50,038 nt of DNA from Alphaproteobacteria bacterium UBA3307 (GCA_002361365.1 DEST01000090.1:1-50038), one strand, 5' to 3'; positions 28,322 to 50,038 are shown, numbered from the stretch's first letter. Notes: generated by a model from the letters alone, not told the origin. Numbers and translations: made by a program.

Positions 28322-28486
28322 TTGCTTTCTCCGCTCTGTTGAATACAGATTGTTTATAAAACATTTGCGGAAAAATTCAAGCGGATATTTATATTTTAAA
28401 GTATAGCATAAAAATATAGAATTTTTTTCATAAAATACTTGCATTTATCTATATATTATGGTAATTTTGACAAAAGAGAGGGCAAA

Positions 28487-30124
28487 ATGGATTTCGGGTA
28501 TAAAACTTTTTTGGCTTTGACTTTGGCTACTGCTGCTTGTTGGCGTGCCAAAGCGCAGGTTGATTCAGAAAATTTAAACGCTAAGATTATCACTCAAACT
28601 ACTCCGAAAGAGCATAATGATTCCGACTATGCTATACCATTTAATGAAGCATTTGATAGGTCTGTGGCGGTTTCAAATTATCAGCAAACCGAAAAAGAAA
28701 TTGCAAAACCGGAACAACATACAGCAAATCTTTCGTCCTCTCAAAAAGACAGTATTTTGCAAGAGCAAATTTTTCAGTCAATATTAGATATTGAATATGA
28801 TTTAATTCGCTATATGTCGCTTTCTGAAGATATAAAGTTTGTTTCTTATTGGGACAGAGCAGGTCGCAAACAAACAATCGGTCCGGGGTTGACAACGCTT
28901 GGTGGGCGCAGAGTCAGAAGAGGCGACTGCTTAAGAAGCGAAACTCAGATGCTTAAAGAATTCCGTTTAAAAGCCAAACAAGATATTGTTCCGACTATTG
29001 CAAAATATATACCACATTGGACGGAACTTGAAAATCGTGAAAAAATAGTATTGTTTGATATGTTTTGGAATAATGGAGCAGGAGCCGGTGTTTTAACCAA
29101 TAAAGCCTCCAAAAATACGTTTTATAATTCTTTGTCCGAATCACAAAAGCAAGAAATTGCCGATAGCATTAAAAATAATAACAAGAAAATAGTTCTGGGC
29201 GGCACAACTTGGTCAATGACTGATTTGCCGGAATGGAGAAATTTGAGCGTACGAGAGCGAGCCGCATTGAATCCGCTCTACTCAAATAAATGTATTGTTA
29301 AAGCAGACGAACAGAATCCTACATATTCTCAAAATTTCCGTATTTTACCACACGAAAAACGCCAAGAAATTGCCAAATTAGTTTCGACACAACGAGGGCA
29401 GCCCGCATTTGCAATACCGGAATATAGTTCTGCTTGGCAATCCAAAGACAGCACAATTCATTATCGTGATTTTGTGATAGAGGCTGATTATACTTCGTCT
29501 GATGTTAATGTTTGGTATAGGCAAACAGAAGAGAAGCAACTTGAAATCGCGCAAAAATTAGCAGAAAAAAATAAAACCACTACATATAATGGACATTTAG
29601 TTTCAGCCAGAGAGATTCCTGCGTGGTATTTTTTAAGTCAGCAAGAACGAAATAAATTACAATCGGAAGTTTTTAAGGGACGCAATTTGTTCAGGCAAAA
29701 TTCAAAAACTAAAAAACAACAGCCGATACTTTCCGGCTTATGTTGTGAACTCAACCTTTATTTGGCAGATAAAACACCGGAAAATAAGGAAAGAGTTGCA
29801 GCAAGAATTGCCTCTTTCGTACACGCGGGAGATAAGGTTTTAAGCGGTTTGCTCAAGCGAGCTAATCTTAGAGCGCAAATCTTTCTGGGTAATATTACTT
29901 TTGGCAAAGGTAAAAATCAGATTGATTTAGATGAAGTGCATCTTGGTGCAACATCGGAAATTAAAATTGCAGATTTGAATAACCCTCAAGCTATTTGTGA
30001 CAGCTTGCATAATTGCAAAGCCGGCTTAAATTATCAGGACACAATCCTCCGTCAAGAAAATTTGGTCAATAAAGGTCGCATAATAAAGCAAGCCAGAATT
30101 CGTACCGGTACACGCGGACGATGA
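28487..30124 (+). CDS. Secreted GH24 (phage-type) lysozyme-like protein with a large internal repeat-bearing insertion
   Basis: Signal peptide MDFGYKTFLALTLATAACWRAKAQ, with a GAGAGGG RBS before ATG 28487. The segment SLSEDIKFVSYWDRAGRKQTIGPG...LFDMFWNNGAGAG resembles the E-x8-D-x6-T core and the FN.G motif of GH24. The segment HAGDKVLSGLLKRANLRAQIF resembles the C-terminal G..L.GL..RR..E..LF of GH24. Confidence 0.65.
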   Translation: MDFGYKTFLALTLATAACWRAKAQVDSENLNAKIITQTTPKEHNDSDYAIPFNEAFDRSVAVSNYQQTEKEIAKPEQHTANLSSSQKDSILQEQIFQSILDIEYDLIRYMSLSEDIKFVSYWDRAGRKQTIGPGLTTLGGRRVRRGDCLRSETQMLKEFRLKAKQDIVPTIAKYIPHWTELENREKIVLFDMFWNNGAGAGVLTNKASKNTFYNSLSESQKQEIADSIKNNNKKIVLGGTTWSMTDLPEWRNLSVRERAALNPLYSNKCIVKADEQNPTYSQNFRILPHEKRQEIAKLVSTQRGQPAFAIPEYSSAWQSKDSTIHYRDFVIEADYTSSDVNVWYRQTEEKQLEIAQKLAEKNKTTTYNGHLVSAREIPAWYFLSQQERNKLQSEVFKGRNLFRQNSKTKKQQPILSGLCCELNLYLADKTPENKERVAARIASFVHAGDKVLSGLLKRANLRAQIFLGNITFGKGKNQIDLDEVHLGATSEIKIADLNNPQAICDSLHNCKAGLNYQDTILRQENLVNKGRIIKQARIRTGTRGR

Positions 30125-37765: not shown

Positions 37766-38415
37766 TGGCAGAAAAATTCAGCACAGAAGAAATTAAAATC
37801 GCTGAGAAGCAGTTTACGCGCCCGATAAATTTTATGCTGAGTGTAGCACATTTAGAACAATTGCCTGATGATAGATATCCTGAAATTGCGTTTGCCGGAC
37901 GTTCCAATGTGGGAAAATCCAGCCTTATAAATGCACTGTTTAATCAAAAAAAACTGGCAAAAACATCTTCCACTCCTGGACGTACGCAACAACTAAATTT
38001 TTTTAATTTTGATGACAAGCTGTTTTTGGTTGATATGCCGGGGTATGGATATGCCGAAGCACCGGAAAAACTCGTAAAACAATGGCAAGCCATTTTAAAA
38101 ACCTATTTGCGCGGACGACCGAATTTACGTCGGGTTTTTGTGCTGATTGATGCTCGACACGGTATAAAAAAAGAAGATTTAGAAATTATGAAATTGCTTG
38201 ATGAATCGGCAGTTTCGTACCAAATTATCCTAACCAAGATTGATAAGATTTCCGGTATGGAATTAAATAAAACAGTGACAAAAATTGCCGTAGAGATTGC
38301 CAAACACGCGGCTGCTTTACCGGATATGATTGTCACCAGTTCGGAACAAAAAATCGGGCTGGAATTACTTAAAGCTGAAATCTGTTCGTTTATGCAAATT
38401 ACTAAATGTTCTTAA
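37765..38415 (+). CDS. engB: Ribosome-biogenesis GTPase EngB/YihA
   Basis: G1 GRSNVGKSS, G3 DMPGYG, G4 TKIDK. The start overlaps the yidC stop by 1 nt. Confidence 0.92.
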   Translation: MAEKFSTEEIKIAEKQFTRPINFMLSVAHLEQLPDDRYPEIAFAGRSNVGKSSLINALFNQKKLAKTSSTPGRTQQLNFFNFDDKLFLVDMPGYGYAEAPEKLVKQWQAILKTYLRGRPNLRRVFVLIDARHGIKKEDLEIMKLLDESAVSYQIILTKIDKISGMELNKTVTKIAVEIAKHAAALPDMIVTSSEQKIGLELLKAEICSFMQITKCS

Positions 38416-39560
38416 ATAGAGCACTTTGTCGAAGCATTATTGTTTCCGCGGCTATCAAGCACAACATCTATTATGGCAAAAATAGAATAAATCTGACTGA
38501 CGACATCTCGTATTTTGTGATAACTTAGTGCAGGTGTAAACAATGAGGTGGTTTCAAACATATCTTTGCGAGTATGAATTGCAATCAGGAGTTTGTTGTC
38601 CCAGAAACTGAAATCAATATGTTTACCGTGAAACAAGCGTTTTATCTCCAGCATTTTTTCCATAAACAATGGCGTCAAAATATAGCGAGCCTCAACCTGA
38701 TTATCGGTTAGAACTTTCCATTTTTTTATAAATAGCAATCCCTCAAGCTTTACTTTTTGGGTTGCTTTTTTGGGGTTATAGCGGCGATAAACCAAATATA
38801 TTACACCGATAATAAACAGAGGAAATAATATCGGAACCCACGCAAACAGCAAACTAAAAGGCACTCCCGGTTCCGTAAAATAGTAATAATATATCAAAAA
38901 TGACGGACTTAACAAAAAAACTAAAACCATCATCAATAGCGGATTATTCCATAATAAATTAAGGTTTCTGCCACGATTTAAGGCGATTGTTTTACCTCGA
39001 TTTTTTTGAGGCAGTTCCAGCATTATCATTACTCCGCTAAAAATATTGGTTTCACCGCGATTGCCGTGAATTTTAAGATTCTGCTCCGATATTTTTATAT
39101 TGGTGCCGCGATATTCTCCCTTAAACGAATCGTCAACGTCAGAACGATTAAAATACGAAAATAATTCTGCCCGCTTGATGGTATCCGGTCCGATTATATC
39201 AGAGCCGCAATAAGTAAACTTACCCCAAAAAGATATAAGCTTTTTCATTACTTTGCACTTGGTCGTGTTACGGTATTGTAAAAACGGCATATACAACATA
39301 ATTACAAAAAATATTACAGCTACTGTAGAAATTAGGGAAAACCATTGTTCATATGTGTTATCCGCTGTAAGAATATTAAATTGAAACAACAGTAGCACAA
39401 TCAGAATCGTTGCAAACAGAGCAAATAATGTTTTGAATAATTGGCGCAAACAGGTGTGCCGTTCTTGTTCTAATTCTTGATATAATGATTGCAAACTTGT
39501 TTTATAAAAGTCGTAAAACTTTTGTTGTGTTGAGGCCAGTTCTACATTAACTTTTTTCAT
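38412..39560 (-). CDS. Multi-pass membrane protein, tentatively DUF3137-like; last gene of the VirB10/VirB11 operon
   Basis: 382 aa with two pairs of TM helices flanking soluble segments. My assignment of motif-level resemblance to DUF3137 (FSGVMIMLELP...; LLIAIHTRKDMFE) is from memory only. It begins 18 nt after the virB11 stop. No Walker motifs, so it is not VirD4. Confidence 0.5.
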   Translation of the reverse strand: MKKVNVELASTQQKFYDFYKTSLQSLYQELEQERHTCLRQLFKTLFALFATILIVLLLFQFNILTADNTYEQWFSLISTVAVIFFVIMLYMPFLQYRNTTKCKVMKKLISFWGKFTYCGSDIIGPDTIKRAELFSYFNRSDVDDSFKGEYRGTNIKISEQNLKIHGNRGETNIFSGVMIMLELPQKNRGKTIALNRGRNLNLLWNNPLLMMVLVFLLSPSFLIYYYYFTEPGVPFSLLFAWVPILFPLFIIGVIYLVYRRYNPKKATQKVKLEGLLFIKKWKVLTDNQVEARYILTPLFMEKMLEIKRLFHGKHIDFSFWDNKLLIAIHTRKDMFETTSLFTPALSYHKIRDVVSQIYSIFAIIDVVLDSRGNNNASTKCSI

Positions 39561-39578
39561 ACAAGCAGTCCTTTATAA

Positions 39579-40553
39579 TCACGTTACTTCCGTTATGGCG
39601 CGTTGGTTTCCCAAACGTTGAATCTGCACCACATGCAACTTGCGCCGCATCTCATCGAGTGTTTGCTCAACGTTTACAGCACCGTTGGTAGAAGCCATAA
39701 TACGTTTTATAAATTGCAGATAGGCCTCTTGCGAACTTTCCGCGTGAATGGTGGCAAAACAGTTGTCATGGCCGGAACCCATAAGCTGCCAAATACCGCT
39801 GGCGTTACTGGTTGAAATTTCGCCGCCGATAATTGCATCCGGCGTAAAACGTACGACCAAGTCGATGATGCCGGAGTAGCTAATGTCGTTGGTTTGATTG
39901 GTACGTGACATCACGAGGTGAACACGATTCGGATGCGGAACAATCAACTCTCGTGTATCTTCAACCGTAATAATTCGTTTATGAATATCCAAAATTTTCA
40001 GCAAATTATTTAAAAAAGTTGTTTTACCGGTTGATGTTGCGCCGGACACCAAAATGTGTTCACCTCGCTTTATATACAGAAGCAGACGTTCATAAGCATC
40101 ATCCGGAACCTTAATATCCTTAAGCGGATTCAGCTTTTGGAGCGCTTGCCCCTGTTTCATTCCGTAATCTTCGAGACCGAAAGCAACGTCATCGGAATGC
40201 AGACGAATTGCCAGAGCGATACCGCCTGTCAAATCTTCTTCATCATACATAACGTTTTTCCCGCAGATTGCGGAAAATCGATGGTCTCCCGGTATGGTGG
40301 CATACACAAACGGAGACCCCTGAATCGGATCAAACTCTAACTCATAGGTATTTGCAATTATGTAGAGTAAATCCGTCAGATATTCTTTAGAAAGTTTTTC
40401 GTCTTTATACATAACCCACGGATAAGCACGTTTACCACGCATTCGGAGCCAAATTTGGCCCGCACGATTGATGGCGACCTCTTCGAGGTTATCTTGATTA
40501 TACCAATAGGATAAAGGTCTTAATACTGATTCCAATACTGAAAAATCACTCAT
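39579..40553 (-). CDS. virB11: VirB11-type type IV secretion traffic ATPase
   Basis: Walker A GATSTGKTT, Asp box RIITVEDTRELIV, RFTPDAIIGGEIS (compare the RPDRIIvGEvR motif), and His box GHDNCFATIHAESSQEA. Start set at ATG 40553 with a GGAGGAAGG RBS, 10 nt after the stop of the upstream gene. Confidence 0.88.
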   Translation of the reverse strand: MSDFSVLESVLRPLSYWYNQDNLEEVAINRAGQIWLRMRGKRAYPWVMYKDEKLSKEYLTDLLYIIANTYELEFDPIQGSPFVYATIPGDHRFSAICGKNVMYDEEDLTGGIALAIRLHSDDVAFGLEDYGMKQGQALQKLNPLKDIKVPDDAYERLLLYIKRGEHILVSGATSTGKTTFLNNLLKILDIHKRIITVEDTRELIVPHPNRVHLVMSRTNQTNDISYSGIIDLVVRFTPDAIIGGEISTSNASGIWQLMGSGHDNCFATIHAESSQEAYLQFIKRIMASTNGAVNVEQTLDEMRRKLHVVQIQRLGNQRAITEVT

Positions 40554-40563
40554 CGCCTTCCTC

Positions 40564-43500
40564 CTATAACAACTCCGGCACATCACTCGATTCACCGCCG
40601 TCCATAGATGGTAACGGTTGGTCCGAGCTTGGAGCAACATAGCCTGCCGGATTTTGGTTTACATTACTTGTCGGCGCCGGTGTACGTGTCGGTACGGCAG
40701 CCGGATTACCTTGCGGAGCGCTCGCCGGTTGAACATTTTGATAATTACCGTTATAAGTAACACCTCCGCTGTCTGATGGGCTTCTGCTTTCTTCATCAGG
40801 ATCCAATAATCCGCCTTTTCCATCAAAATCTCTGCCACCGGAACCTGAACTGCTGATTCGTTTTGAGCGCTCACGGCTGTTGAGCCACAAATCTTCATTA
40901 GGATAGATAATAATGCGTGTACCGGCCGGAACATAAGTTACCGAGCGAATTTTTTCTTTATCTTCTATCATTTCCTTTAAAATTTCTTTCATTTGCTCAT
41001 TAAAATTCTTACGCCCGTCCGACATTGCCTGACTACGAGCATCGGCTGTGGTAGTACTGGTACCATCGCTACTTACTGAAGTTGTAGAGTTTCCTCCTGA
41101 AGCTAAAAGCCAGTTGGCAGCAGTTTGCAAGGTAGTTGTAACCAGCGGTAACGAATATTTTTTAAGCAATTGCTGGTCCAAATAACCGATAGCGCCGGCA
41201 CGACCTTGAGCATCGGCTGTTTGAGCATCACTAAAGCGCCATTGTGAACCATCCGGACGAATAAGTCTGGTCCAAGTGATACCGATTTTGGCAGCTCCGC
41301 CGTTATTGGCATTGACACCGCCGCCGGAATCGACTTCACCAATAACACGTGAACCTGCCGGAATTATCACGTTTCGACCTTCTTCGGCATAAACGTTGCG
41401 TTCCACAATAGCAGTAACCGGAATTTTCTGGCTCAGACTATCCGAAGCATAAACCGAGCGTGCCAAAACTGCCGGAATACCCTTATCTTGTAAAATCATC
41501 TCGCTCATATCTACACGCCATGAAGATATCTGATTAGGACTTGGTCCACCATCCCAACCATCTTTTTCGTATCCGGTAAAAGCGGCGACTTCCGCATCAT
41601 TATTACTAGGGTCTGCCGGTAGCTCTCCCATTCCGAGAGAATTACGCCTATTGTTTTGCGCCGCCATCAATGCCTGAGCTCGCAGTGGGTCATAGCGTTC
41701 ACCCTGACCATACCCGCCACCGGCTCCGACATTGGTCGGACGCTCGCCATGTCCATACGGATTACCCGTACCGTATGCATTTGGCGGAATAAACATTTCG
41801 CTTGCAGATGGTCGTCTTATTTCTTCAAAACCTATGAGATTATGGTTTACATCGACAACATTACCATCTTGGTCAACATAACCTTTTAAATCTCCATTAT
41901 CATCACGAACTGTACCATCATCATAAATATTTCCTATAATATCACCTTCCGGATTAAGAGCAATTCCGACAATTCTATTGCCAAGTTTTTGACGTTTAAC
42001 TTTAGTTTCACTAACCGTTGATGGTTGGGTAGTTTGAGTTTGAGGTTGAGATTGCTCCGTTTCAGCATCTGCAATCGTAGGACGTCGGCGTGGTTTATAT
42101 TCCGGTTCAGCTTCGGCAGTGGTTTTCGGCACATAAATATAATATTGATATGGGGTGGCCAAGGCAATTTCGTTGCCGTCAGCATTGCGAATAATTCCGG
42201 TTTCCGTTAAATATCCGATGTTTTGTCCCTCAAAATCTGTAACAGTACCGTCTAACTGCAACACGCCAACCGGATTTTGACTGACATCACGGACAATGTA
42301 ATCGCGGTTACCTCGTGCAATTACCTGTCCGCTACGGTCGGTTACAAAACCGCGGTCAAGTTGCCCCAATCTGCTACCGACAGGGCTCAGAACGGTGCCA
42401 TCTTTAGTCAGGTATCCGTATGTGGAAAAGTTTTCGTCATACACATAAAAATCATAAAGTGCGTAACCGATATTTTCTCCATTAGCCTGAACGCTACCAT
42501 CAAAATTAACCTCACCGACAGGTTTGCCGGCTTCGTTAATCACCATACCGCCGGCACTGACCATACCCAAAAACTTGTTGGCATCGGTGTACGCTACCTG
42601 ATAACGCATAACATTACCCAGCACTTTTTTAGATTTAGAAACAACGTTTCCATTCGGCTGCATATATCCGACAAGCTGGCTATCTGCTCCGAAAACTTGT
42701 CCGTTTGCCGCCACATTACCAATGATTTTATTTTCAAAATCAATTACCGGAGCCGGAATTATAACACCATATTGTTGAGCTTTTGTTTGGTTTAAAATCA
42801 GACCTTCACGGTTGACGCAACCCAATGATTTTCCTTCAAAATCCGTACCAAATCCGGCGTTTACCGTACCAACATAATTACCATTAAAATCTATCAGCCC
42901 GTTTCCTTGCACGGCATAACCGATATAATTACCGGCATCTGATATTGCTTGTCCGTTCGGTAAAAGACGACCGATTATTACATCTCGACTGTTTACAATA
43001 TCTCCTTTACCGTTAACAACACCGATTACTGAGCATTTTTCGTTAACAACCGGTGCAAATGTTATTAGTTTGCCGTTTATTGCGCGATTATTATCAATAA
43101 TATATTCGTTATACACTACCTTACCGTAAATATTGCCATTTAGCCCGATTACAGTGCCGGTCGAATCAGCATAACCAATTAAATCTCCGCCGATATTCAG
43201 TGCTATCATTTTATTGTCGGCAAAACCTTTTAGCGGGCTCATTGCAGCAGATGCTGCATCGTTTGTTTCTACCGCATATCCCGCCGGAACAATTTTATAT
43301 GCAATAGCGTTAGATTTATTCAAAATCAGGTTACTATTGGCAAATCTACCTAATGGATTGCCCTCAAAATCAAGTGCATACATCGGAGTAATCAAAGCTC
43401 CGGCATAACCTTTAGACTCAAGCAATATCCCTGATGGAGTCAGTTTTGCTCCGGTACCTTGACGATAAAGTTCGCCGTTAGGATTGATATACGAATAAAG

Positions 43501-44841
43501 CGTTCCTTCCAAACCATACGCGGCAGAAAGCGGATATCCGCCGCCAAAAACTTTACCATCCGCATTAAATAGATATCCAAACGGTGATATTTTACCACCA
43601 CCGGAGCCGGAAGCAACAGTTGCATCAATATTGTTCATTCCCAAAGGTTGCAATGTGTTATTTATGGCAATCATGCCGCTAGCTACACCGCCGATAAGAG
43701 TTCTGTTATCATCAAATGCATAACGACCTCTGGCATAACCGATTTCACCACCGCTTGTAGATATAATACGCCCATTAGGCAAACTTTGACCTTTAAGATG
43801 AGCCAAAGCATCATAAACCGGTCCGGTTTGTACCAAGGCACCGATTTTATTATTTTGTTCATCATAAACATAGCCTTTTGCACCGATATGGCCTATAATT
43901 TGTCCGCCACGTACAATATTGCCGCCGGGAACAATATAGCCTAAGTATCTGCCAAAATTATCATTCGCAGTAGCTGCTATATTAACGGCAAAACCGACCA
44001 CATCTCCATTGGCACGTACCAAACTGCCGTCTGCCCGATAGCGAGCTACAACACGTTCACCTTGTTTAACTTCGCCATTGTAACTGACAATTCCGATATA
44101 TTTACCTATTTGATCAAAAGCATAACCGGTGGCAATTACACTGCCTATAATCCTGTTTGCCGAATTATAAGCATAACCGTTAGCGTGAATTTTCCCGATT
44201 TCTTTACCTTCAAAATCGACTATTTTTCCACTTGGGGCAATACTGCCTAAAAAGCGCCCGTCTACAGAAACCACCATTTTAGAAGACATCAATCTGCCGT
44301 CTAAAATATACTCATCTCCGGAACGGCGATAAGCATACCCGTTAGCGGAAACAAAGCCGATACGTTGTCCTTCCAATTTGGTATATTCTCCGCCGCCGGT
44401 TAAACGTCCGAGTGCATCACCTTTAGGGGAGTATATCAGCCCCGGATACAAAATAGCACCGATAACTTCTGCAGAATCATCTATTACCAATCCATTTGGT
44501 AAGGCCTTGCCTAAAGTACGTCCGCTCAAGCTACGTACAAAACCGTCAGTATGAACTTTACCGAGTAAGCGGTTGTCCATTCCAATAGCAATACCTTGCG
44601 GCACTACCCCACCGATGACCGCGCCATCTTCATTTATAATCAAGCTGTCTGCTGTAATTGTGCCGATATTATTACCATCTGCGCTTATAACCATACCGGT
44701 TGAAATCACTTGACCGATGATATTGCCGGAAAAATCGATTGCGGTAATTTCTGCGGCCTGAGCCACAGCAACCAAAGATAATAAAATCGCCCAACAAAGC
44801 ACCCACACTTTTTTAATATATCGACTTATGCTGCATCTCAT
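40564..44841 (-). CDS. Giant (1425 aa) VirB10/TrbI-domain protein. Architecture: N-terminal anchor or signal sequence, about 870 aa of 17-residue repeats, a Pro/Gln-rich linker, a VirB10 beta-barrel domain, and a Pro/Ser-rich tail.
   Basis: C-terminal aa ~1105-1320 (nt 40882-41529) read IPAVLARSVYASD...VTAIVERNVYAEEGRNVIIPAGSRVIGEV...ITWTRLIRPDGSQWRF...DAQGRAGAIGYLDQQLL...VTYVPAGTRIIIYPNEDLWL, the classic VirB10/TrbI pattern. The N-terminus is MRCSISRYIKKVWVLCWAILLSLVAVAQA. There is a 2-nt gap to the upstream gene and a 10-nt gap to virB11. Confidence 0.88.
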   Translation of the reverse strand: MRCSISRYIKKVWVLCWAILLSLVAVAQAAEITAIDFSGNIIGQVISTGMVISADGNNIGTITADSLIINEDGAVIGGVVPQGIAIGMDNRLLGKVHTDGFVRSLSGRTLGKALPNGLVIDDSAEVIGAILYPGLIYSPKGDALGRLTGGGEYTKLEGQRIGFVSANGYAYRRSGDEYILDGRLMSSKMVVSVDGRFLGSIAPSGKIVDFEGKEIGKIHANGYAYNSANRIIGSVIATGYAFDQIGKYIGIVSYNGEVKQGERVVARYRADGSLVRANGDVVGFAVNIAATANDNFGRYLGYIVPGGNIVRGGQIIGHIGAKGYVYDEQNNKIGALVQTGPVYDALAHLKGQSLPNGRIISTSGGEIGYARGRYAFDDNRTLIGGVASGMIAINNTLQPLGMNNIDATVASGSGGGKISPFGYLFNADGKVFGGGYPLSAAYGLEGTLYSYINPNGELYRQGTGAKLTPSGILLESKGYAGALITPMYALDFEGNPLGRFANSNLILNKSNAIAYKIVPAGYAVETNDAASAAMSPLKGFADNKMIALNIGGDLIGYADSTGTVIGLNGNIYGKVVYNEYIIDNNRAINGKLITFAPVVNEKCSVIGVVNGKGDIVNSRDVIIGRLLPNGQAISDAGNYIGYAVQGNGLIDFNGNYVGTVNAGFGTDFEGKSLGCVNREGLILNQTKAQQYGVIIPAPVIDFENKIIGNVAANGQVFGADSQLVGYMQPNGNVVSKSKKVLGNVMRYQVAYTDANKFLGMVSAGGMVINEAGKPVGEVNFDGSVQANGENIGYALYDFYVYDENFSTYGYLTKDGTVLSPVGSRLGQLDRGFVTDRSGQVIARGNRDYIVRDVSQNPVGVLQLDGTVTDFEGQNIGYLTETGIIRNADGNEIALATPYQYYIYVPKTTAEAEPEYKPRRRPTIADAETEQSQPQTQTTQPSTVSETKVKRQKLGNRIVGIALNPEGDIIGNIYDDGTVRDDNGDLKGYVDQDGNVVDVNHNLIGFEEIRRPSASEMFIPPNAYGTGNPYGHGERPTNVGAGGGYGQGERYDPLRAQALMAAQNNRRNSLGMGELPADPSNNDAEVAAFTGYEKDGWDGGPSPNQISSWRVDMSEMILQDKGIPAVLARSVYASDSLSQKIPVTAIVERNVYAEEGRNVIIPAGSRVIGEVDSGGGVNANNGGAAKIGITWTRLIRPDGSQWRFSDAQTADAQGRAGAIGYLDQQLLKKYSLPLVTTTLQTAANWLLASGGNSTTSVSSDGTSTTTADARSQAMSDGRKNFNEQMKEILKEMIEDKEKIRSVTYVPAGTRIIIYPNEDLWLNSRERSKRISSSGSGGRDFDGKGGLLDPDEESRSPSDSGGVTYNGNYQNVQPASAPQGNPAAVPTRTPAPTSNVNQNPAGYVAPSSDQPLPSMDGGESSDVPELL
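42142..44751 (-). repeat. Coding tandem array of roughly 50 degenerate 17-residue units (x-G-x-x-[IL]-G-x-[VI]-x3-G-x-[VI]-x3) inside the VirB10-domain gene
   Basis: The first units have an exact 17-aa register: G39, G56, G73, N90, G107, A124 of the protein. The pattern persists with indels to about aa 900. Confidence 0.8.
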
Positions 44842-44843
44842 CT

Positions 44844-47800
44844 TTAATTCCTCCGGTTGCGCGCCACTTCAGGCAAACTGTAGCCCGAAACATTTTTATC
44901 TGCATCTACAAACGAACCGTTGCTCTTTATGTAGCCGATTTCCTGATTTTCGCCGGAAACAACGCGTCCATTTGCTGACAAGCGTCCTAAATAATCTCCG
45001 TTATTAGAAAGAACTGTATTGCCGATTGTATAAATATGACCTATGATATTATTTTGCTTATCTACAGCAAAACCATCAGTTAATATATGCCCGATAACAC
45101 TACCATTGCGATATACCTTACCATCAAATCCTACCACGCCCTTAACCGTGTCATCATTGCCTATAACAATATCACCGCTCACAACTTCTCCTAAAAACTG
45201 TCCGTCAGTGCTGATGACTTTGCCGTCTGATAACACACGACCTGCATACAGATGCTTGGTATCTGCAAATGTTCCGTCCGGTAAAACAGTTCCGATGATT
45301 TCTCCGGCAGAATCAATTACTATACCGGTTTGTAGCGCCACCAAATTGTTACTGTTACCACCTCCCGGTAGCAAAATCGACAGTATCGCGCCATCGGCAC
45401 CGATGACTGCACCGACATCGTTAGATATTCCGACCGGATTACCAAACACATCAACCATCACACTTTGTGGTAAAACCTCACCCACAACGCGATTTTCATT
45501 CAGCACCAAACCATCAGGAGCTGTGTATCCGGTAACTTCTCCAGCGTTGTATTGTTTACCTTCCGCATTGATTTGCGGTTCAGGTTCAATCACCTCTCCG
45601 GTCGGTACGGCATAACCTAAATATGTGCCGTCATATCCGCGAACTCCTCCCTGACGCACGACTGAGGCAATCAAACGTCCTTGCTCATCAAACATCTGTC
45701 CTTTTACATTGACCTTACCCACATACGTACCTTTATAATCCAACACTCTTAAATCATAGTTTATCTGACCGATGCGTTGTCCGCCAGTATCCACAATATG
45801 TGCCGGACGCACAAATTTTGCCGCCATACCGCCGTAAATTCCAACTTCTCCGCCGTTTATAACATCTACCGGCATACCATTTTCGTCATATACTTTACCG
45901 TCAGGAAACAAATGCCCGATTTTTTGACCGGCTGAATTATATAAAATATTTATCTCCGGAACAGCATAACCTACGATTTTACGATTTTTATCCGCCACAA
46001 GATTACCAAATATCACATGCGCTCCGCTAACATTTTTCAGTTGCGGATTTCCATATTTATCAAAAGTGCCAAGCGGTTTACCATCAAAGCTAAAGGCATA
46101 TTTTGCCGTAGAAATAGAGCCGATATATGCAGAATTTTTATCATATACATCACCATAAGCATTTGCACAGCCTATATAGTCTCCTTTAGAATTTCGCAAC
46201 ATACCGCCAGCCTCTAAAATGCCGAGCGGTTTCCAGCTACGACGCGAAATTACTACTTTTTTGTTGACTAAATGACCTTTAATGCGCGGTTGTTCCAAAT
46301 CTAAGACCGTGCCGTCCGGATTTAAGCAACCAACCTCTTGTCCGTCTGAATCACGCACATACCCATCGGCATTGGCCTCTCCTACATACGAGCATTCTTC
46401 ATCGTATACACTACCTGTTGGCATCACCCGACCGGCAAAAGCACCTTGTCCGGTCCAAACAGTACCATCAGCATAAATGCGATAATCCGTTTCAACGCCA
46501 TCGCGACGAATCACACCGTCTGCATCCAACTTAGTACTGAAATCACAACCCCAGTTGACAATATATCCATAGCGTACGCCTACTGCCAAAATTTTAGCTC
46601 CTGACACATCGGTTACCAACCCGTCCGGTCGCATTTTACCAACAACTTTTTGCTGATTTATGACTTCTCCTCGATTGTTGACTGTTCCTAAAACCGTACC
46701 GGCCGGAGTAATCGGCAACAAACTTTTATCAATCGCAGAGCCGATAATTTTGCGACCAAACGAACGAATATTGCCATTTACGTCTATCAGACCGATAATT
46801 TCTCCCTTAGCATTACGAACCACGCCCTTTGCATCTGCAAAGCCCAAAATTTTTCCGTTTTCATCAAGTCCCAATCTGGCTTTTTCTCCAACTTTGCCAA
46901 TAACGTTGCCATCTTCGTCTACAATATTACCATTCTCATCTACTTTACCGATTCGATTACCATTAAAATCATAAACATTACCGTCTTCGTCAACATAACC
47001 GATTACATTGCCGTCTTCATCTAACGCCAAACGGACGTTACGGCCGACTGTGCCTATAACATTGCCGGCACGGTCTTCAGTAATAACATTTCCGTTTTCA
47101 TCTACCTTGCCGATAACATTACCGTCAAAATCATGAGCAATTCCAAACTTATCAACATATCCGATAGGTTTTCCGTTTTCATCTAATACTACCCTATTTC
47201 CTGTACCGCGATGACCGATAATATTGCCATTAGCATCTACAATGTTGCCATTGGCATCTACACGGCCTATTACATTGCCTTTAAAGTCACGCACAATACC
47301 ATTTTCACCGATAATACCGATAGCATTGCCGTTTTCATCTACTGCAACGGAATCTCCTCCATAACCGATAATATTACCGTTGGTATCGCGAACAATGCCG
47401 TTTTCATCCATCGTTCCGATAATATTGCCATTTAAATCACGCACAACACCATTTTCGTCAACATAACCAATTACATTGCCGTTTTTATCATAAACTCTGT
47501 TATCTGACGAAGCGGCAGTACCTATCACCTTGCCGTCTTTATCTACCACATTTCCGTTTTTATCGACATAGCCGATAATATTGCCGTCTTTATCTCTTAC
47601 TACTTTACCCCCGGCGCCTCGATGGCCGATTACTTTGCCATTGACGTCTAATACTTGGCCGCTCGCGTCTACTCTGCCTATTACATTACCATCAAAGTCG
47701 CGTACTATTCCATCTTCTCCTATAAGACCTATTACTTTGCCATTTTCATCTACAGCTACTGCATCTCCGCTGTAACCGATTATCTTGCCGCTCGCATCTC

Positions 47801-49553
47801 TAACTACGCCGTTTTCATCTGCTCGGCCGATGATGTTACCTTCAAAGTCACGTACTGTCCCGTCTTCTTCTACATACCCAATTACATTGCCGTTCTCGTC
47901 ATACACCAATTTTTTACCATCGGTAAATCCTATTATTTTTCCGTTTTTATCTAACGCCAATTCTGTATCCTTACCGACAGAACCAACAATTTTTTGATTT
48001 GCTGTATTGCCTATAATGTTGCCGTCTTTATCAACATAACCTATGATATTGCCATTAGAATCGTGCACTAAACCATCTTCATCTATATAGCCGATTACAT
48101 TGCCGTTTTCATCTAAGGCCAAATCGTGCCATTCATCACTGACATGGCCGATAATATTGCCGTTTGTATCTACAACATTGCCATCTTTATCTACTTTACC
48201 GATAACATTACCGTTAAAATCGCGAACATTACCGTCTTCATCTACGTAGCCTATAATATTGCCGTTTTCATCATGAACAATCCGTGCTGCCGAACCGCGT
48301 TTGCCTATAATCTGCTTGTCTACCACCGTACCATCTGCGGCAACTTGCCCCACAATATTGCCATCGGCGTCAACCACATCTCCATTTGGCAATACAATAC
48401 CGACGACCTCGCCGTTTTCATTCAAAATCGCCTCACCGGCTTTGGCTACACGGCCAATAACATTTCCGTTTGCATCTACCACTTTTCCGTCTTTATCTAA
48501 TCTGCCGATAATATTGCCATTTAAATCAGTTACCGAGCCATCTTGATTAACCCTACCGATAATATTGCCGCTTGCATCGTACACATAGCCATAATCAGCC
48601 GCTTTGCCGATTACCTGACCATTTTCATCAACTACCGTTCCATCTGCCAGCATTGTACCGATAACATTGCCCTCCATATCATGAGCAACACCGTTTTCAT
48701 CAACATAGCCTATAACATTGCCGCTTTCATCCAAAATCAACTTACCATTACCGGCGACACCGATAATGTTGCCGTCCATATCGACAATCATACCATCATC
48801 ACGCAAACGACCGATTTCTCTGCCCTGAAAATCGCGTACAATACCATTTTCATCCACAATGCCAATAATTTCACCGTTAGGACCATATGCATAACGAGTT
48901 TTACCCTGTGGAGTGGCAGATATACTGTTTTTGCCGCCGTTGGTTTCGCAATAATTACAATCAGAAGGATTAAGTGCCGTACCATAAATTGAAACTTCAT
49001 CGTGCTTAGCACTCGAATCCTGCACGTTAGTTTCGTGCCACACAATTTTAAAGTTACTCTGAACACTTCCCGGCATAGACGGATTCCATTTAATTTTTAC
49101 GCTGCAAGTATTTTTACCGCGTAAATCGCGTTCTTTACAATCAGATTCATAATCAAATTCTGCCGATGCCGGAGCATCTTCAAGCTCTACCGATAAAACA
49201 CGAATTTCTTTGTGTCCATTGGTGCCGATTGTTAAAACACCGGTTGCCTCATTGCCGACAAAAATATTTCCTAGGTGAATTTCTTGAGGAATCATCGTAA
49301 TCGGACGTTCTACCGTACTTGGAGAATCAAACACAATTTCCGATGAATTATCTTGAACATCTTGTACGCCGGTTTTCAGCTCGTCTTGTGTATCGGTTTC
49401 CGGTATATAATGTTCAACCGGCTTTTCTTCTTCCGAGCCGAGCAAAAGCAAGCTGAACAAAAATACGCCCAACGTTACCAAACCGAAAATCATTATGATT
49501 CGGTTGGTTTTGCGTACATATCTGTCAGAATGGGTTAACGGCTCTTTACTCAT
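44844..49553 (-). CDS. Giant (1569 aa) membrane-anchored repeat protein. Architecture: short cytoplasmic N-terminus, TM helix, Ig-like (choice-of-anchor-D/ASH-like) domain, then about 1340 aa of 17-residue G-N-V-I-G-x-V-D-x-D-G-x-V-x-D-x-N repeats.
   Basis: An uninterrupted 4.7-kb ORF. TM helix at aa 18-39 (IIMIFGLVTLGVFLFSLLLLG). Aa 85-195 (HLGNIFVGNEATGVLTIGTNGHKEIRVLSVEL...CSVKIKWNPSMPGSVQSNFKIVW) look like an Ig-like beta-sandwich. The repeats run from aa ~222 to ~1560. It is 3 nt from the upstream gene and 2 nt from the downstream gene. Confidence 0.9.
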   Translation of the reverse strand: MSKEPLTHSDRYVRKTNRIIMIFGLVTLGVFLFSLLLLGSEEEKPVEHYIPETDTQDELKTGVQDVQDNSSEIVFDSPSTVERPITMIPQEIHLGNIFVGNEATGVLTIGTNGHKEIRVLSVELEDAPASAEFDYESDCKERDLRGKNTCSVKIKWNPSMPGSVQSNFKIVWHETNVQDSSAKHDEVSIYGTALNPSDCNYCETNGGKNSISATPQGKTRYAYGPNGEIIGIVDENGIVRDFQGREIGRLRDDGMIVDMDGNIIGVAGNGKLILDESGNVIGYVDENGVAHDMEGNVIGTMLADGTVVDENGQVIGKAADYGYVYDASGNIIGRVNQDGSVTDLNGNIIGRLDKDGKVVDANGNVIGRVAKAGEAILNENGEVVGIVLPNGDVVDADGNIVGQVAADGTVVDKQIIGKRGSAARIVHDENGNIIGYVDEDGNVRDFNGNVIGKVDKDGNVVDTNGNIIGHVSDEWHDLALDENGNVIGYIDEDGLVHDSNGNIIGYVDKDGNIIGNTANQKIVGSVGKDTELALDKNGKIIGFTDGKKLVYDENGNVIGYVEEDGTVRDFEGNIIGRADENGVVRDASGKIIGYSGDAVAVDENGKVIGLIGEDGIVRDFDGNVIGRVDASGQVLDVNGKVIGHRGAGGKVVRDKDGNIIGYVDKNGNVVDKDGKVIGTAASSDNRVYDKNGNVIGYVDENGVVRDLNGNIIGTMDENGIVRDTNGNIIGYGGDSVAVDENGNAIGIIGENGIVRDFKGNVIGRVDANGNIVDANGNIIGHRGTGNRVVLDENGKPIGYVDKFGIAHDFDGNVIGKVDENGNVITEDRAGNVIGTVGRNVRLALDEDGNVIGYVDEDGNVYDFNGNRIGKVDENGNIVDEDGNVIGKVGEKARLGLDENGKILGFADAKGVVRNAKGEIIGLIDVNGNIRSFGRKIIGSAIDKSLLPITPAGTVLGTVNNRGEVINQQKVVGKMRPDGLVTDVSGAKILAVGVRYGYIVNWGCDFSTKLDADGVIRRDGVETDYRIYADGTVWTGQGAFAGRVMPTGSVYDEECSYVGEANADGYVRDSDGQEVGCLNPDGTVLDLEQPRIKGHLVNKKVVISRRSWKPLGILEAGGMLRNSKGDYIGCANAYGDVYDKNSAYIGSISTAKYAFSFDGKPLGTFDKYGNPQLKNVSGAHVIFGNLVADKNRKIVGYAVPEINILYNSAGQKIGHLFPDGKVYDENGMPVDVINGGEVGIYGGMAAKFVRPAHIVDTGGQRIGQINYDLRVLDYKGTYVGKVNVKGQMFDEQGRLIASVVRQGGVRGYDGTYLGYAVPTGEVIEPEPQINAEGKQYNAGEVTGYTAPDGLVLNENRVVGEVLPQSVMVDVFGNPVGISNDVGAVIGADGAILSILLPGGGNSNNLVALQTGIVIDSAGEIIGTVLPDGTFADTKHLYAGRVLSDGKVISTDGQFLGEVVSGDIVIGNDDTVKGVVGFDGKVYRNGSVIGHILTDGFAVDKQNNIIGHIYTIGNTVLSNNGDYLGRLSANGRVVSGENQEIGYIKSNGSFVDADKNVSGYSLPEVARNRRN
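46734..48890 (-). repeat. Highly regular coding repeat array with a 51-nt (17-aa) period; about 43 G-x-[VI]-[IVL]-G cores by my count, with nested higher-order duplications
   Basis: Protein aa 222-940. Core spacing is exactly 17 aa in long stretches (for example G278, G295, G312). A 137-aa super-repeat (aa 550-686 versus 687-823) shares idiosyncratic elements at the same offsets (IGY[SG]GD[AS]VAVDENG; IGHRG[AT]G). Confidence 0.85.
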
Positions 49554-49556
49554 ATT

Positions 49557-50038
49557 CTATTGCGTCCTCACAACACTACAAAACACCCCGCCACGCCCGA
49601 GCTGACCGCAGATAGAATCTCCGGCTTCTAAATTTTGTATCGGGCCTACACGCAGATGAAACAATTCTTTACCCTGCCCGTCTGCCGGTGCGTCGACTGA
49701 ATAAAATGGCTCATATCCGCCTAAAATTCCGGAATACCTTCCTGATAAATCTTTCCACAGTTTTTCCAAATTATTTACACTGTCGTCCGTGCCCAGCTCT
49801 ATTGACAAACTTTCTCCCGATTGGCCGCTAAAGCCGGAGCCGTATTTATATTGTGGATACGGATTGGCAATATTTTTGCCTCCGGTAATATTACAATTAT
49901 TTCCGCTACAATTCATTGCCGGTAATTCAGACATTGCACTATTATCTGAGGTGATATTCATACTCATCAGACTGTTTTGTGCCGCATTGGGTACAATCAA
50001 TCCGCCATTAGGACCTTTGATATATCCGCCATTGCCGG
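49557..50038 (-). CDS. C-terminal part of a SPOR-domain (peptidoglycan-binding) protein; the ORF stays open to the window edge
   Basis: The last ~80 aa read SLSIELGTDDSVNNLEKLWKDLSGRYSGILGGYEPFYSVDAPADGQGKELFHLRVGPIQNLEAGDSICGQLGRGGVFCSVV. This fits the SPOR pattern: a beta-alpha-beta-beta-alpha-beta fold with the signature ...lyRlrvGP....A..lC..L...G..C.vv. The codons upstream of the track TTG start continue without a stop (…GNGGYIKGPNGG…). The stop is 3 nt before the giant repeat gene. Confidence 0.7.
   Translation of the reverse strand, partial: GNGGYIKGPNGGLIVPNAAQNSLMSMNITSDNSAMSELPAMNCSGNNCNITGGKNIANPYPQYKYGSGFSGQSGESLSIELGTDDSVNNLEKLWKDLSGRYSGILGGYEPFYSVDAPADGQGKELFHLRVGPIQNLEAGDSICGQLGRGGVFCSVVRTQ

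Follow-up and report, generated by a model that had tools for sequence, protein, structure and literature searches.

At one end of a 50,038-nucleotide stretch of DNA from Alphaproteobacteria bacterium UBA3307 (GCA_002361365.1 DEST01000090.1:1-50038; hereafter, the window), a group of minus-strand genes encodes homologs of VirB10 and VirB11, which are components of type IV secretion systems (T4SSs). This region is quite likely the distal end of a T4SS locus of the VirB/rvh kind that is chromosomal and inherited vertically, and in which two very large repeat proteins together make up one split VirB10. We call the upstream protein (1569 amino acids) the giant; the downstream protein (1425 amino acids), which joins repeats to a TrbI/VirB10 domain, is the VirB10 fusion. 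The window is nearly all of one metagenome contig of 50,140 bp, which ends about 100 nt past it.

The link between the two proteins comes from homologs in which they are joined. We compared the first 215 residues of the giant to 1.84 billion representative proteins and found about 30 clusters that match its N-terminus from residue 1. In the four longest and most distant clusters (1930–2363 amino acids), beta-flower repeats and a C-terminal TrbI domain lie on one chain. These unsplit homologs, which represent three more distant lineages, also carry the N-terminal tail, the transmembrane (TM) helix, and the Ig-like module of the giant. For instance, the giant aligns with residues 1–1600 of the unsplit protein P0286 (E = 8e-129), and the VirB10 fusion aligns with residues 780–2064 of the same protein (E = 3e-120). 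We looked up the genes for three of the unsplit homologs (P0286, P0338, and P0310), and each gene lies between those for CagX/VirB9 and VirB11, with a small open reading frame (ORF) and one or two VirB8 genes preceding. Because the unsplit homologs join both parts, we conclude that the giant and the VirB10 fusion are two halves of one giant VirB10.

The two halves also stay together across genomes. We scanned one genome per species of GTDB and found relatives in 383 genomes; the results on related loci are for the best 80 of these 383. Both genes occur in 71 loci, from about 70 species-level metagenome-assembled genomes (MAGs) from the gut or rumen, and in each of these loci the gene for the giant immediately precedes that for the VirB10 fusion. 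The ORF is intact in 71/71 loci for the giant and in 70/71 for the VirB10 fusion. The preliminary description of the window had proposed that the two large proteins belong together and to a T4SS, and this adjacency bears it out; the window alone could not reveal that a VirB10 had undergone fission and that the 1569-residue protein is its N-terminal half.

The giant and the VirB10 fusion

The giant (44844..49553, minus strand) is a complete ORF. Its first 41 residues (49431..49553) comprise an 18-residue cytoplasmic tail, LTHSDRYVRKTNR, and one TM helix, with a hydropathy peak at residues 19–37. The tail and the helix are conserved in every ortholog that we sampled and in the unsplit proteins P0286, P0310, P0332, and P0338. 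As predicted from these sequences, this is the inner-membrane anchor topology that is expected for the N-terminus of VirB10.

The VirB10 fusion (40564..44841, minus strand) is also a complete ORF, and its chain does not have the VirB10-type cytoplasmic tail and TM helix, which are carried by the giant instead. Standing in for them is a putative Sec signal peptide (residues 1–29; 44755..44841), which ends in VAVAQA and is followed by AEITAIDF. All 24 of the orthologs that we examined have an n-region, a hydrophobic core of 12–18 residues, and a small-x-small site. Directly after the signal peptide, the mature N-terminus of these 24 proteins has the motif EIT(A/T)(I/V)(D/N)F, in which the E, I, T, and F are invariant. 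These sequences indicate a conserved fission: the first half would keep the inner-membrane anchor, and the second half, which gained a signal peptide, would keep the outer-membrane barrel.

The barrel was correctly placed at the C-terminus of this protein by the preliminary description. The TrbI/VirB10 domain (residues 1116–1320; 40882..41496), with the helix-loop-helix stretch of the outer-membrane barrel, matches Pfam PF03743 with 110 bits (cutoff 35) and NCBIfam's ComB10 with E = 1e-32. In the PDB, the best match is ComB10 (2bhv, E = 3e-19), followed by TrwE, CagY, and VirB10 from Xanthomonas. After the barrel comes a low-complexity tail of about 100 residues that is rich in Pro and Ser (residues 1321–1425 and the stop codon; 40564..40881), as seen from the C-termini of 24 orthologs. 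The protein usually ends in (D/N)VPxL(L/F/I), or in QLF in more distant relatives. The VirB10 fusion has over 100 full-length relatives of about 1400 residues, and the named ones are each a "TrbI/VirB10 family protein" of uncultured Alphaproteobacteria. Among the orthologs, the length of the fusion is nearly constant (1386–1506 amino acids).

Both proteins are built mostly from repeats of 17 residues, as the preliminary description had noticed, and this period stands far above background. BLOSUM autocorrelation peaks at lags of 17, 34, and 51 in both of them, and reaches 0.97 at lag 17 for residues 215–960 of the giant. Bflower_2 (PF21785), the Pfam family of 5-fold beta-flower repeats, matches the giant with 351 bits and the fusion with 164 bits (cutoff 38). 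Matches to other hairpin-repeat families are weaker: for the giant, RHS_repeat (50 bits; cutoff 22) and YD_repeat_2x (TIGR01643, 58.6 bits; cutoff 15.8), and also DUF3659. The beta-flower families date from 2023, when AlphaFold models were used to define them; their beta-hairpins form "petals" tipped with [DNEQ]xxG, and no function is known for them (PMC10584680).

Within the giant, the tail and TM helix are followed at residues ~85–170 (49044..49301) by a putative Ig-like beta-sandwich of the ASH or choice-of-anchor-D type. The matches to this module are weak (Pfam ASH, E = 0.003; NCBIfam choice_anch_D, E = 0.002), and many large proteins that are otherwise unrelated contain the same unit of about 100 residues in tandem copies. 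Residues 226–960 (46674..48878) are the length-variable middle array, with about 43 near-ideal beta-hairpin repeats (xDxNGNVIGYVDEDGxV) and Bflower_2 matches in 17 stretches. The rest of the protein (residues 961–1569 and the stop codon; 44844..46673) is a domain of degenerate hairpins whose length is conserved: its tblastn matches have a constant span (~1.82–1.86 kb) in all loci. In the fusion, the mature protein starts with about 50 degenerate 17-residue hairpins (residues 30–~905; 42127..44754). A disordered linker that is rich in Pro, Thr, and Gln follows (residues ~906–955; 41977..42126).

The preliminary description had also stated that the two large proteins share one repeat family, and they do align with each other (23% identity over 726 amino acids, E = 2e-23). 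The alignment pairs residues 961–1569 of the giant with residues 30–900 of the fusion. By sequence, the C-terminal domain of the giant and the N-terminal domain of the fusion are paralogous copies of one repeat region.

Putting these results together, the simplest history by parsimony starts with an internal duplication; in the gut clade, the protein would then have undergone fission, and its downstream half would have gained a signal peptide. We take the single chain to be ancestral because ordinary VirB10 and the three separate lineages have one chain.

We modeled both repeat regions with AlphaFold2 (AF2). A model of residues 28–1000 of the fusion, from an alignment of 33 sequences, has about 100 short strands, with a mean predicted local distance difference test (pLDDT) score of 88.5 and a predicted TM-score (pTM) of 0.84. 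The pLDDT falls below 50 at model residues 880–927, in the linker. Given these scores, the N-terminal domain of the fusion is predicted to be one defined, rigid, all-beta body and not beads on a string. The second model, made from a single sequence and covering 375 residues of the ideal array of the giant, is also all-beta (pTM = 0.40), and its confident blocks of about 90–100 residues are consistent with chained modules of five hairpins each.

For both models, the best matches from Foldseek were the YD-repeat shells of Rhs proteins, teneurins, and Tc-toxin BC (E down to 1e-24); choline-binding and CROP hairpin repeats ranked lower. Since the TM-scores to the Rhs shells were just 0.07–0.14 for both models, the likeness to Rhs/YD proteins is local and does not support a cocoon. 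Foldseek found no global structural match for either model, and no solved relative of the repeats was found by sequence. We ruled out an Rhs-like toxin cocoon: there is no global fit, and searches of Pfam and NCBIfam gave no Rhs core, protease, or toxin domain.

While the VirB10 half is constant in length, orthologs of the giant in the 71 loci range from 1100 to 2446 amino acids. The variation can be seen between close relatives. In the strain of the related locus L002, the VirB10 fusion is 98% identical to that of the window, and comparing the window at ~46900-47600 (residues ~650–850 of the giant) to L002:5133-9998 reveals in-frame indels of 17 and 35 amino acids and a mosaic patch. Outside the variable patch, the two giants are about 97–99% identical. 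This variation suggests gene conversion or recombination among the repeats, despite a DNA identity between repeat units of 60–77% (from Tandem Repeats Finder and a direct-repeat search). We considered that the array might be highly recombinogenic and dropped the idea in view of this DNA identity.

The T4SS locus and its distribution

In the window, five minus-strand ORFs are separated by gaps of exactly 3, 2, 10, and 18 nt. Our ORF calls agree with the preliminary description on this point, and the public record, made with its own gene caller, has identical calls. A GGAGG-like motif lies upstream of the start codon at each gene of the cluster. Scans of the region for promoters and terminators gave no signal above background.

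The gene upstream of the giant is virB9. The window contains only its 3' end (49557..50038, minus strand; residues ~366–524 of 524), which runs to the end of the window. The preliminary description recognized its SPOR domain, and this match stands, but it took the ORF to be a separate SPOR-domain protein and assigned the VirB9 position to the 4.7-kb repeat gene. In fact, the partial ORF is 100% identical to residues 366–524 of the VirB9 protein of L002 (524 amino acids; L002:3555-5129). The full-length protein has a signal peptide and matches Pfam's CagX (PF03524) with 51 bits (cutoff 34.2; E = 2e-13). Because the partial ORF is the C-terminus of VirB9, the VirB9 slot is filled, directly upstream of the giant.

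The SPOR domain, which is of a peptidoglycan-binding type, makes up the last ~85 residues of VirB9, within 49557-50036 of the window and L002:4737-5126. Pfam's SPOR model matches 32 of 34 orthologs of this VirB9 (best E = 8.6e-7); the copy in the window scores 19.7–20.4 bits, slightly below the 21-bit cutoff. Across the family, the SPOR extension hardly varies, and no other part of VirB9 is as conserved. In the literature that we searched, no paper pairs SPOR with VirB9.

The rest of the locus was hidden from the preliminary description because the assembly broke in the low-complexity middle of virB9. The same sample as the window's (ERZ12302852) includes a 209-kb contig, NODE_30, which stops at residue 361 of VirB9. 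The two contigs from this sample have similar coverage (7.5 for NODE_802 and 7.9 for NODE_30), and both break inside virB9 near residues 361–366. NODE_30 is the missing upstream neighbor of the window's contig. Its genes encode VirB4 (809 amino acids), proteins of 320, 507, 425, 427, and 1491 amino acids, and then VirB8a. In L002, the genes upstream of the giant encode a VirB8, a 62-residue lipoprotein (with the lipobox LSAC), a second VirB8, and the CagX/VirB9 protein. The two VirB8 paralogs (a and b) share 30% identity, and a sequence search of the PDB with VirB8a gave no match. An ortholog of this VirB4 matches TIGR00929 with E = 2e-83.

The full order is virB4, five genes for Sec-signal coiled-coil proteins, virB8a, a gene for a VirB7-like lipoprotein, virB8b, virB9-SPOR, the giant, the repeat-VirB10 fusion, and virB11. 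Contrary to the preliminary description, this is a nearly complete T4SS locus and no bare VirB10/VirB11 module among envelope proteins: virB9, two virB8 genes, the VirB7-like lipoprotein gene, and virB4 all lie upstream. Most of the canonical set is present there, while the two large proteins are not bona fide DotG/DotF or CagY.

VirB11 (324 amino acids; 39579..40553, minus strand) is encoded by the last conserved gene of the operon. Its identification as a VirB11 ATPase in the preliminary description was sound. It matches T2SSE (PF00437) with 84 bits (cutoff 24.9) and TIGR02788 with E = 1e-42 and 146 bits, which is below the equivalog cutoff of 250 bits. Its motifs include a Walker A motif (GATSTGKT), IITVEDTRE, and GHDNCFATIHA. 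Its best matches in the PDB are a VirB11-like protein (6bge), HP0525, and VirB11 from Brucella. VirB11 is 75–99% identical across the relatives, while the other T4SS proteins drop to about 40–65% in the more distant ones. Judging from these identities, unusually strong constraint seems to act on VirB11, and it is the most conserved gene of the locus.

No VirD4 follows VirB11 in any locus that we examined, and the downstream genes are convergent and unrelated. The preliminary description was right that the arrangement is unlike that of textbook virB loci and that VirD4 is missing from this position. In the window, virB11 is followed after 18 nt by a gene for a 382-residue protein with four TM helices (38412..39560, minus strand; Pfam DUF3137, E = 1e-26), whose stop codon overlaps the stop codon of the convergent engB. 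The preliminary description had called this last gene polytopic, which it is, and a member of the operon, which is not conserved: the gene is present solely in the strain of the window and L002 and in three relatives (L009, L010, and L012), and elsewhere convergent genes lie directly after virB11. It looks like a sporadic passenger and a recent insertion. We ruled out the DUF3137 protein as a substitute for VirB6 or VirD4, as it is absent from most relatives.

Upstream, the region from virB4 to virB8a shows the same kind of arrangement in five genomes, namely the window's sample and four others. The five proteins encoded on NODE_30 have Sec signal peptides, coiled-coil or low-complexity sequence, and no TM helix past the leader, and they match no family in Pfam or NCBIfam. 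A profile search of the PDB with the family of the 1491-residue protein returned only coiled-coil noise. A 549-residue fragment of this protein gave no match in a scan of genome contigs and one uninformative match in a homolog search. In L085:338-9970 (and also in L086, L088, L090, and L091), five or six consecutive genes between virB4 and virB8a encode secreted proteins of about 240–560 amino acids, plus one of 1090–1706; these are coiled-coil or Gly-rich, without matches in Pfam, NCBIfam, or the PDB. They are conserved yet fast-evolving (23–50% identity), and they could be parts of a pilus or adhesin, or cargo. In L090:5644-9985, the large secreted protein encoded upstream of virB8a seems to be divided between two genes (348 and 1090 amino acids). 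In L015:1-4248, the ORF preceding a gene of about 1100 codons resembles the N-terminus of the large secreted-protein family, and its sequence suggests a partial duplication or another fission.

Across the relatives, tblastn finds the order secreted protein, VirB8a, lipoprotein, VirB8b, VirB9, giant, fusion, VirB11 in every locus with enough flanking sequence. The fusion lies between virB9 (with the giant) and virB11 in the window and L002 as well as in every such locus. The flanking genes are housekeeping genes (engB, yidC, rnpA, rpmH, gyrB, lptD, lptFG, surA, relA/spoT, and comEC), and they recur in many relatives, which argues that the locus is chromosomal and vertically inherited and is not a mobile element. 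Some genomes have the T4SS genes in separate islands, which recalls the scattered rvh loci. For example, unrelated genes follow virB4…virB8a in L088:10001-20759, and in L092:1-6800 and L094:1-7280 the virB8 or virB7 genes are immediately preceded by housekeeping genes. Elsewhere in the window, two plus-strand ORFs with TTG starts (7662-9221 and 28439-30124; 519 and 561 amino acids) have no Pfam match at E ≤ 1e-5. Their neighbors are housekeeping genes (comEC, relA/spoT, lptD, lptFG, surA, cca, rlmN, and a glycosyltransferase).

The best 80 genomes are all MAGs from the gut or rumen of humans, goats, sheep, deer, yaks, or horses. One relative, MAG-R073, was assigned to the alphaproteobacterial order Rs-D84 or RF32 (PMC8992543). 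Genomes of Rs-D84 are strongly reduced and the organisms were proposed to be partner-dependent; a T4SS goes unmentioned in that paper (PMC12306168). We searched the literature on this lineage and secretion systems, on the beta-flower, and on SPOR with VirB9, and we found no description of the system. Relative to that literature, the beta-flower repeats in a T4SS core, the conserved fission of VirB10, and the fusion of VirB9 to SPOR are new. A repeat-expanded VirB10 is of an already known kind, with CagY and DotG as precedents.

Proposed mechanism and alternatives

VirB10 is regarded as the sole T4SS subunit that spans both membranes and that relays changes driven by ATP to the gate in the outer membrane. 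The sequences show the homologies, the synteny, and the fission, along with topology signals by prediction; from these, we infer an assembly, a location for the repeats, and a kind of substrate. In the outer membrane, the barrel of the fusion would form a core with VirB9 and the small lipoprotein, as in other type IVA systems, and the SPOR domain of VirB9 would tie the core to peptidoglycan. The hairpin body of the fusion (about 870 residues) would hang beneath the barrel. The giant would be fixed to the inner membrane through its TM helix, with its cytoplasmic tail within reach of the VirB4 and VirB11 ATPases. Its C-terminal domain might then pair non-covalently with the paralogous N-terminal domain of the fusion, which would restore the bridge from the inner to the outer membrane and let the two ATPases act across the periplasm. 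The middle array of ideal repeats would be the adjustable part. The result would be an enlarged periplasmic scaffold, similar in spirit to CagY or to DotG/DotF.

Several points weigh against this model and against the split-VirB10 interpretation behind it. The binding between the two halves and the site of the repeats (periplasm or surface) are steps that we infer. The direction of the change, fission rather than fusion, was chosen by parsimony and not from a rooted tree. Every T4SS component scores well under the NCBIfam equivalog cutoffs, so function is not confidently transferable. No VirB2, VirB3, VirB6, or VirD4 was seen in the stretches that we read (virB4 through virB11 and the downstream flank). 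Finally, the length range of the giant poorly suits a scaffold that spans a fixed periplasmic distance. The variability of the array argues against a strictly distance-matched strut and leaves standing the idea that the array is displayed on the surface.

On that idea, which is compatible with a split VirB10 and concerns only the location and role of the array, the variable hairpins would be a sheath or adhesin on the T4SS filament that touches a partner or host cell and varies by recombination under selection. CagY's middle repeat region and the surface components of the Bartonella Trw system would be the models for this. The repeats of CagY are reported to be surface-exposed and to recombine (PMC2194252, PMC5954226), and the partner-dependent lifestyle proposed for Rs-D84, possibly the order of MAG-R073, would fit as well, as would the contrast in length between the giants and the VirB10 half and the indels and mosaic patch between nearly identical strains. 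On the other hand, the giant is anchored N-in at the inner membrane with no prediction of passage across the outer membrane, and the identity between units makes them a poor substrate for recombination. We consider surface display to be possible but not the favored location. Another proposal is that the system is not an effector translocator and instead works independently of VirD4, either in DNA uptake like ComB or, like Ptl, in the export of periplasmic proteins delivered by Sec. In the Ptl-like variant, the five secreted proteins between virB4 and virB8a would be cargo or parts of a pilus. The absence of VirD4 beside VirB11 and the five secreted proteins make such a machine possible, and in both NCBIfam and the PDB the barrel matches ComB10 best, five or six Sec-signal proteins are conserved within the locus, and comEC is in the window. 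But the ComB system of Helicobacter is not known to have VirB11, which is here the most conserved gene of the locus. Also, the secreted proteins have no recognizable family, and VirD4 could lie on another island, as the locus is split in some genomes. Overall, a VirD4-independent machine seems unlikely.

The two remaining alternatives fit the data much less well. The preliminary description saw a stand-alone VirB10/VirB11 module that is no longer a T4SS, in which the repeat gene replaces VirB9 and the membrane protein replaces VirD4. The window on its own does show no VirB8 or VirB4, and VirB9 solely as a C-terminal SPOR fragment; but in the same sample, as in relatives, genes for VirB9, two VirB8s, the VirB7-like lipoprotein, and VirB4 lie directly upstream, and the DUF3137 gene is missing from most relatives, so we view this module as very improbable. 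It is scarcely credible that the giant is an unrelated cell-envelope or cell-wall-binding protein that neighbors T4SS genes by chance. Hairpin repeats of the beta-flower, DUF3659, and YD types are common outside of T4SS loci, and the Foldseek matches include local likeness to choline-binding repeats and Rhs. However, the position of the giant speaks against a chance neighbor: it lies directly upstream of the fusion in 71/71 loci and, where the flank is long enough, between virB9 and virB10, and the genes are separated by gaps of 2 nt or overlap. The joining of its N-terminal module to a VirB10 barrel in other lineages also speaks against it.

Returning to the split VirB10, a lineage-wide VirB10 that is cut into inner- and outer-membrane halves would be a natural experiment on membrane coupling. 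It would also give the beta-flower hairpin repeats their first clear genomic tie to a molecular machine, and a conserved chromosomal T4SS may be a hallmark of these abundant uncultured Alphaproteobacteria of the gut and rumen. With low confidence, we speculate that the split VirB10 passes energy or gating signals through a non-covalent interface of paralogous hairpin domains, that the length-tunable array extends the machine into a much larger conduit across the periplasm or from cell to cell, and that these metabolically reduced gut Alphaproteobacteria use it to attach to partner cells and exchange material with them. If this is true, the beta-flower fold would have its first functional context, and T4SS cores would have a new class of architecture.

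Comparison with known systems

The gene order most resembles that of the rvh system of Rickettsiales, which is also alphaproteobacterial and chromosomal and can also be scattered in islands. In R. typhi, the order rvhB8-II, rvhB7, rvhB8-I, rvhB9-II, rvhB10, rvhB11 is the same as here (PMC4676284), although this does not imply phylogenetic orthology. In both systems, VirB8 is duplicated, with the divergent copy first, then a small VirB7, and then the conserved copy. The best PDB match of VirB11, the "VirB11-like protein" 6bge, is another likeness to rvh. The differences are that rvhD4 follows rvhB11 in Rickettsiales while no VirD4 follows here; that rvh has a virB3-virB4-virB6 array, whereas here VirB4 is followed by five secreted coiled-coil proteins, with no VirB6 seen there; and that the VirB8 paralogs of rvh are at most 19% identical, as compared to 30% here. 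RvhB10 is of ordinary size. VirB4 and VirB9 are duplicated as well in the rvh system.

The preliminary description knew of only one comparable precedent, DotG/IcmE of Legionella, and it missed CagY from H. pylori. DotG belongs to the type IVB systems of Legionella and Coxiella. As here, DotG has a TrbI/VirB10-like C-terminus after variable repeats. DotF (IcmG), a bitopic inner-membrane partner, is encoded beside DotG. However, DotF is a separate family and not a true fragment of VirB10, as the giant appears to be. DotG has pentapeptide repeats instead of a period of 17, and we found no match to Pfam's pentapeptide families here. The ATPase of type IVB systems is DotB, and the ATPase here is of the VirB11 type (it matches the DotB model with E = 0.0017, far weaker than its match to VirB11) with type IVA neighbors (VirB4, VirB8, and VirB9). 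The length of DotG varies between species, from 1000 to over 1500 amino acids (PMC6761968), and length varies here too.

As for the repeats, the strong match to Bflower_2 and a semi-conserved [DNEQ]xxG tip place them near the beta-flowers (PF21784/PF21785, clan CL0395). The beta-flowers that have been described are single, closed, shallow barrels of about 96 residues and 10 strands (PMC10584680), unlike the 40–80 chained hairpins here. The repeats also match YD profiles, but the Rhs core, the protease, and the toxin tip of the Rhs/YD shells are absent according to Pfam and NCBIfam.

CagY (1927 amino acids), the VirB10 ortholog of the Cag T4SS of H. pylori, is the closest analogue of the split giant VirB10. 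It too has a C-terminal VirB10 barrel on a very large protein that is mostly repeats. Its gene follows that of a ~520-residue CagX/VirB9, as here, and the number of its repeats varies in-frame between strains (PMC5954226, PMC2194252). The two systems have clear differences. We saw no homologs of Cag3, CagM, or CagT here, and CagY is encoded on a pathogenicity island, as opposed to a chromosomal core locus of a gut alphaproteobacterium. The repeats of CagY (the five-prime and middle repeat regions) are alpha-helical (PMC2581425), and those here are 17-residue beta-hairpins, which AF2 models as all-beta. Although the barrel of CagY is detected by PDB search, CagY matches the fusion over the barrel alone. 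And CagY is one polypeptide, whereas here there are two, and the half with the barrel has a signal peptide of its own.

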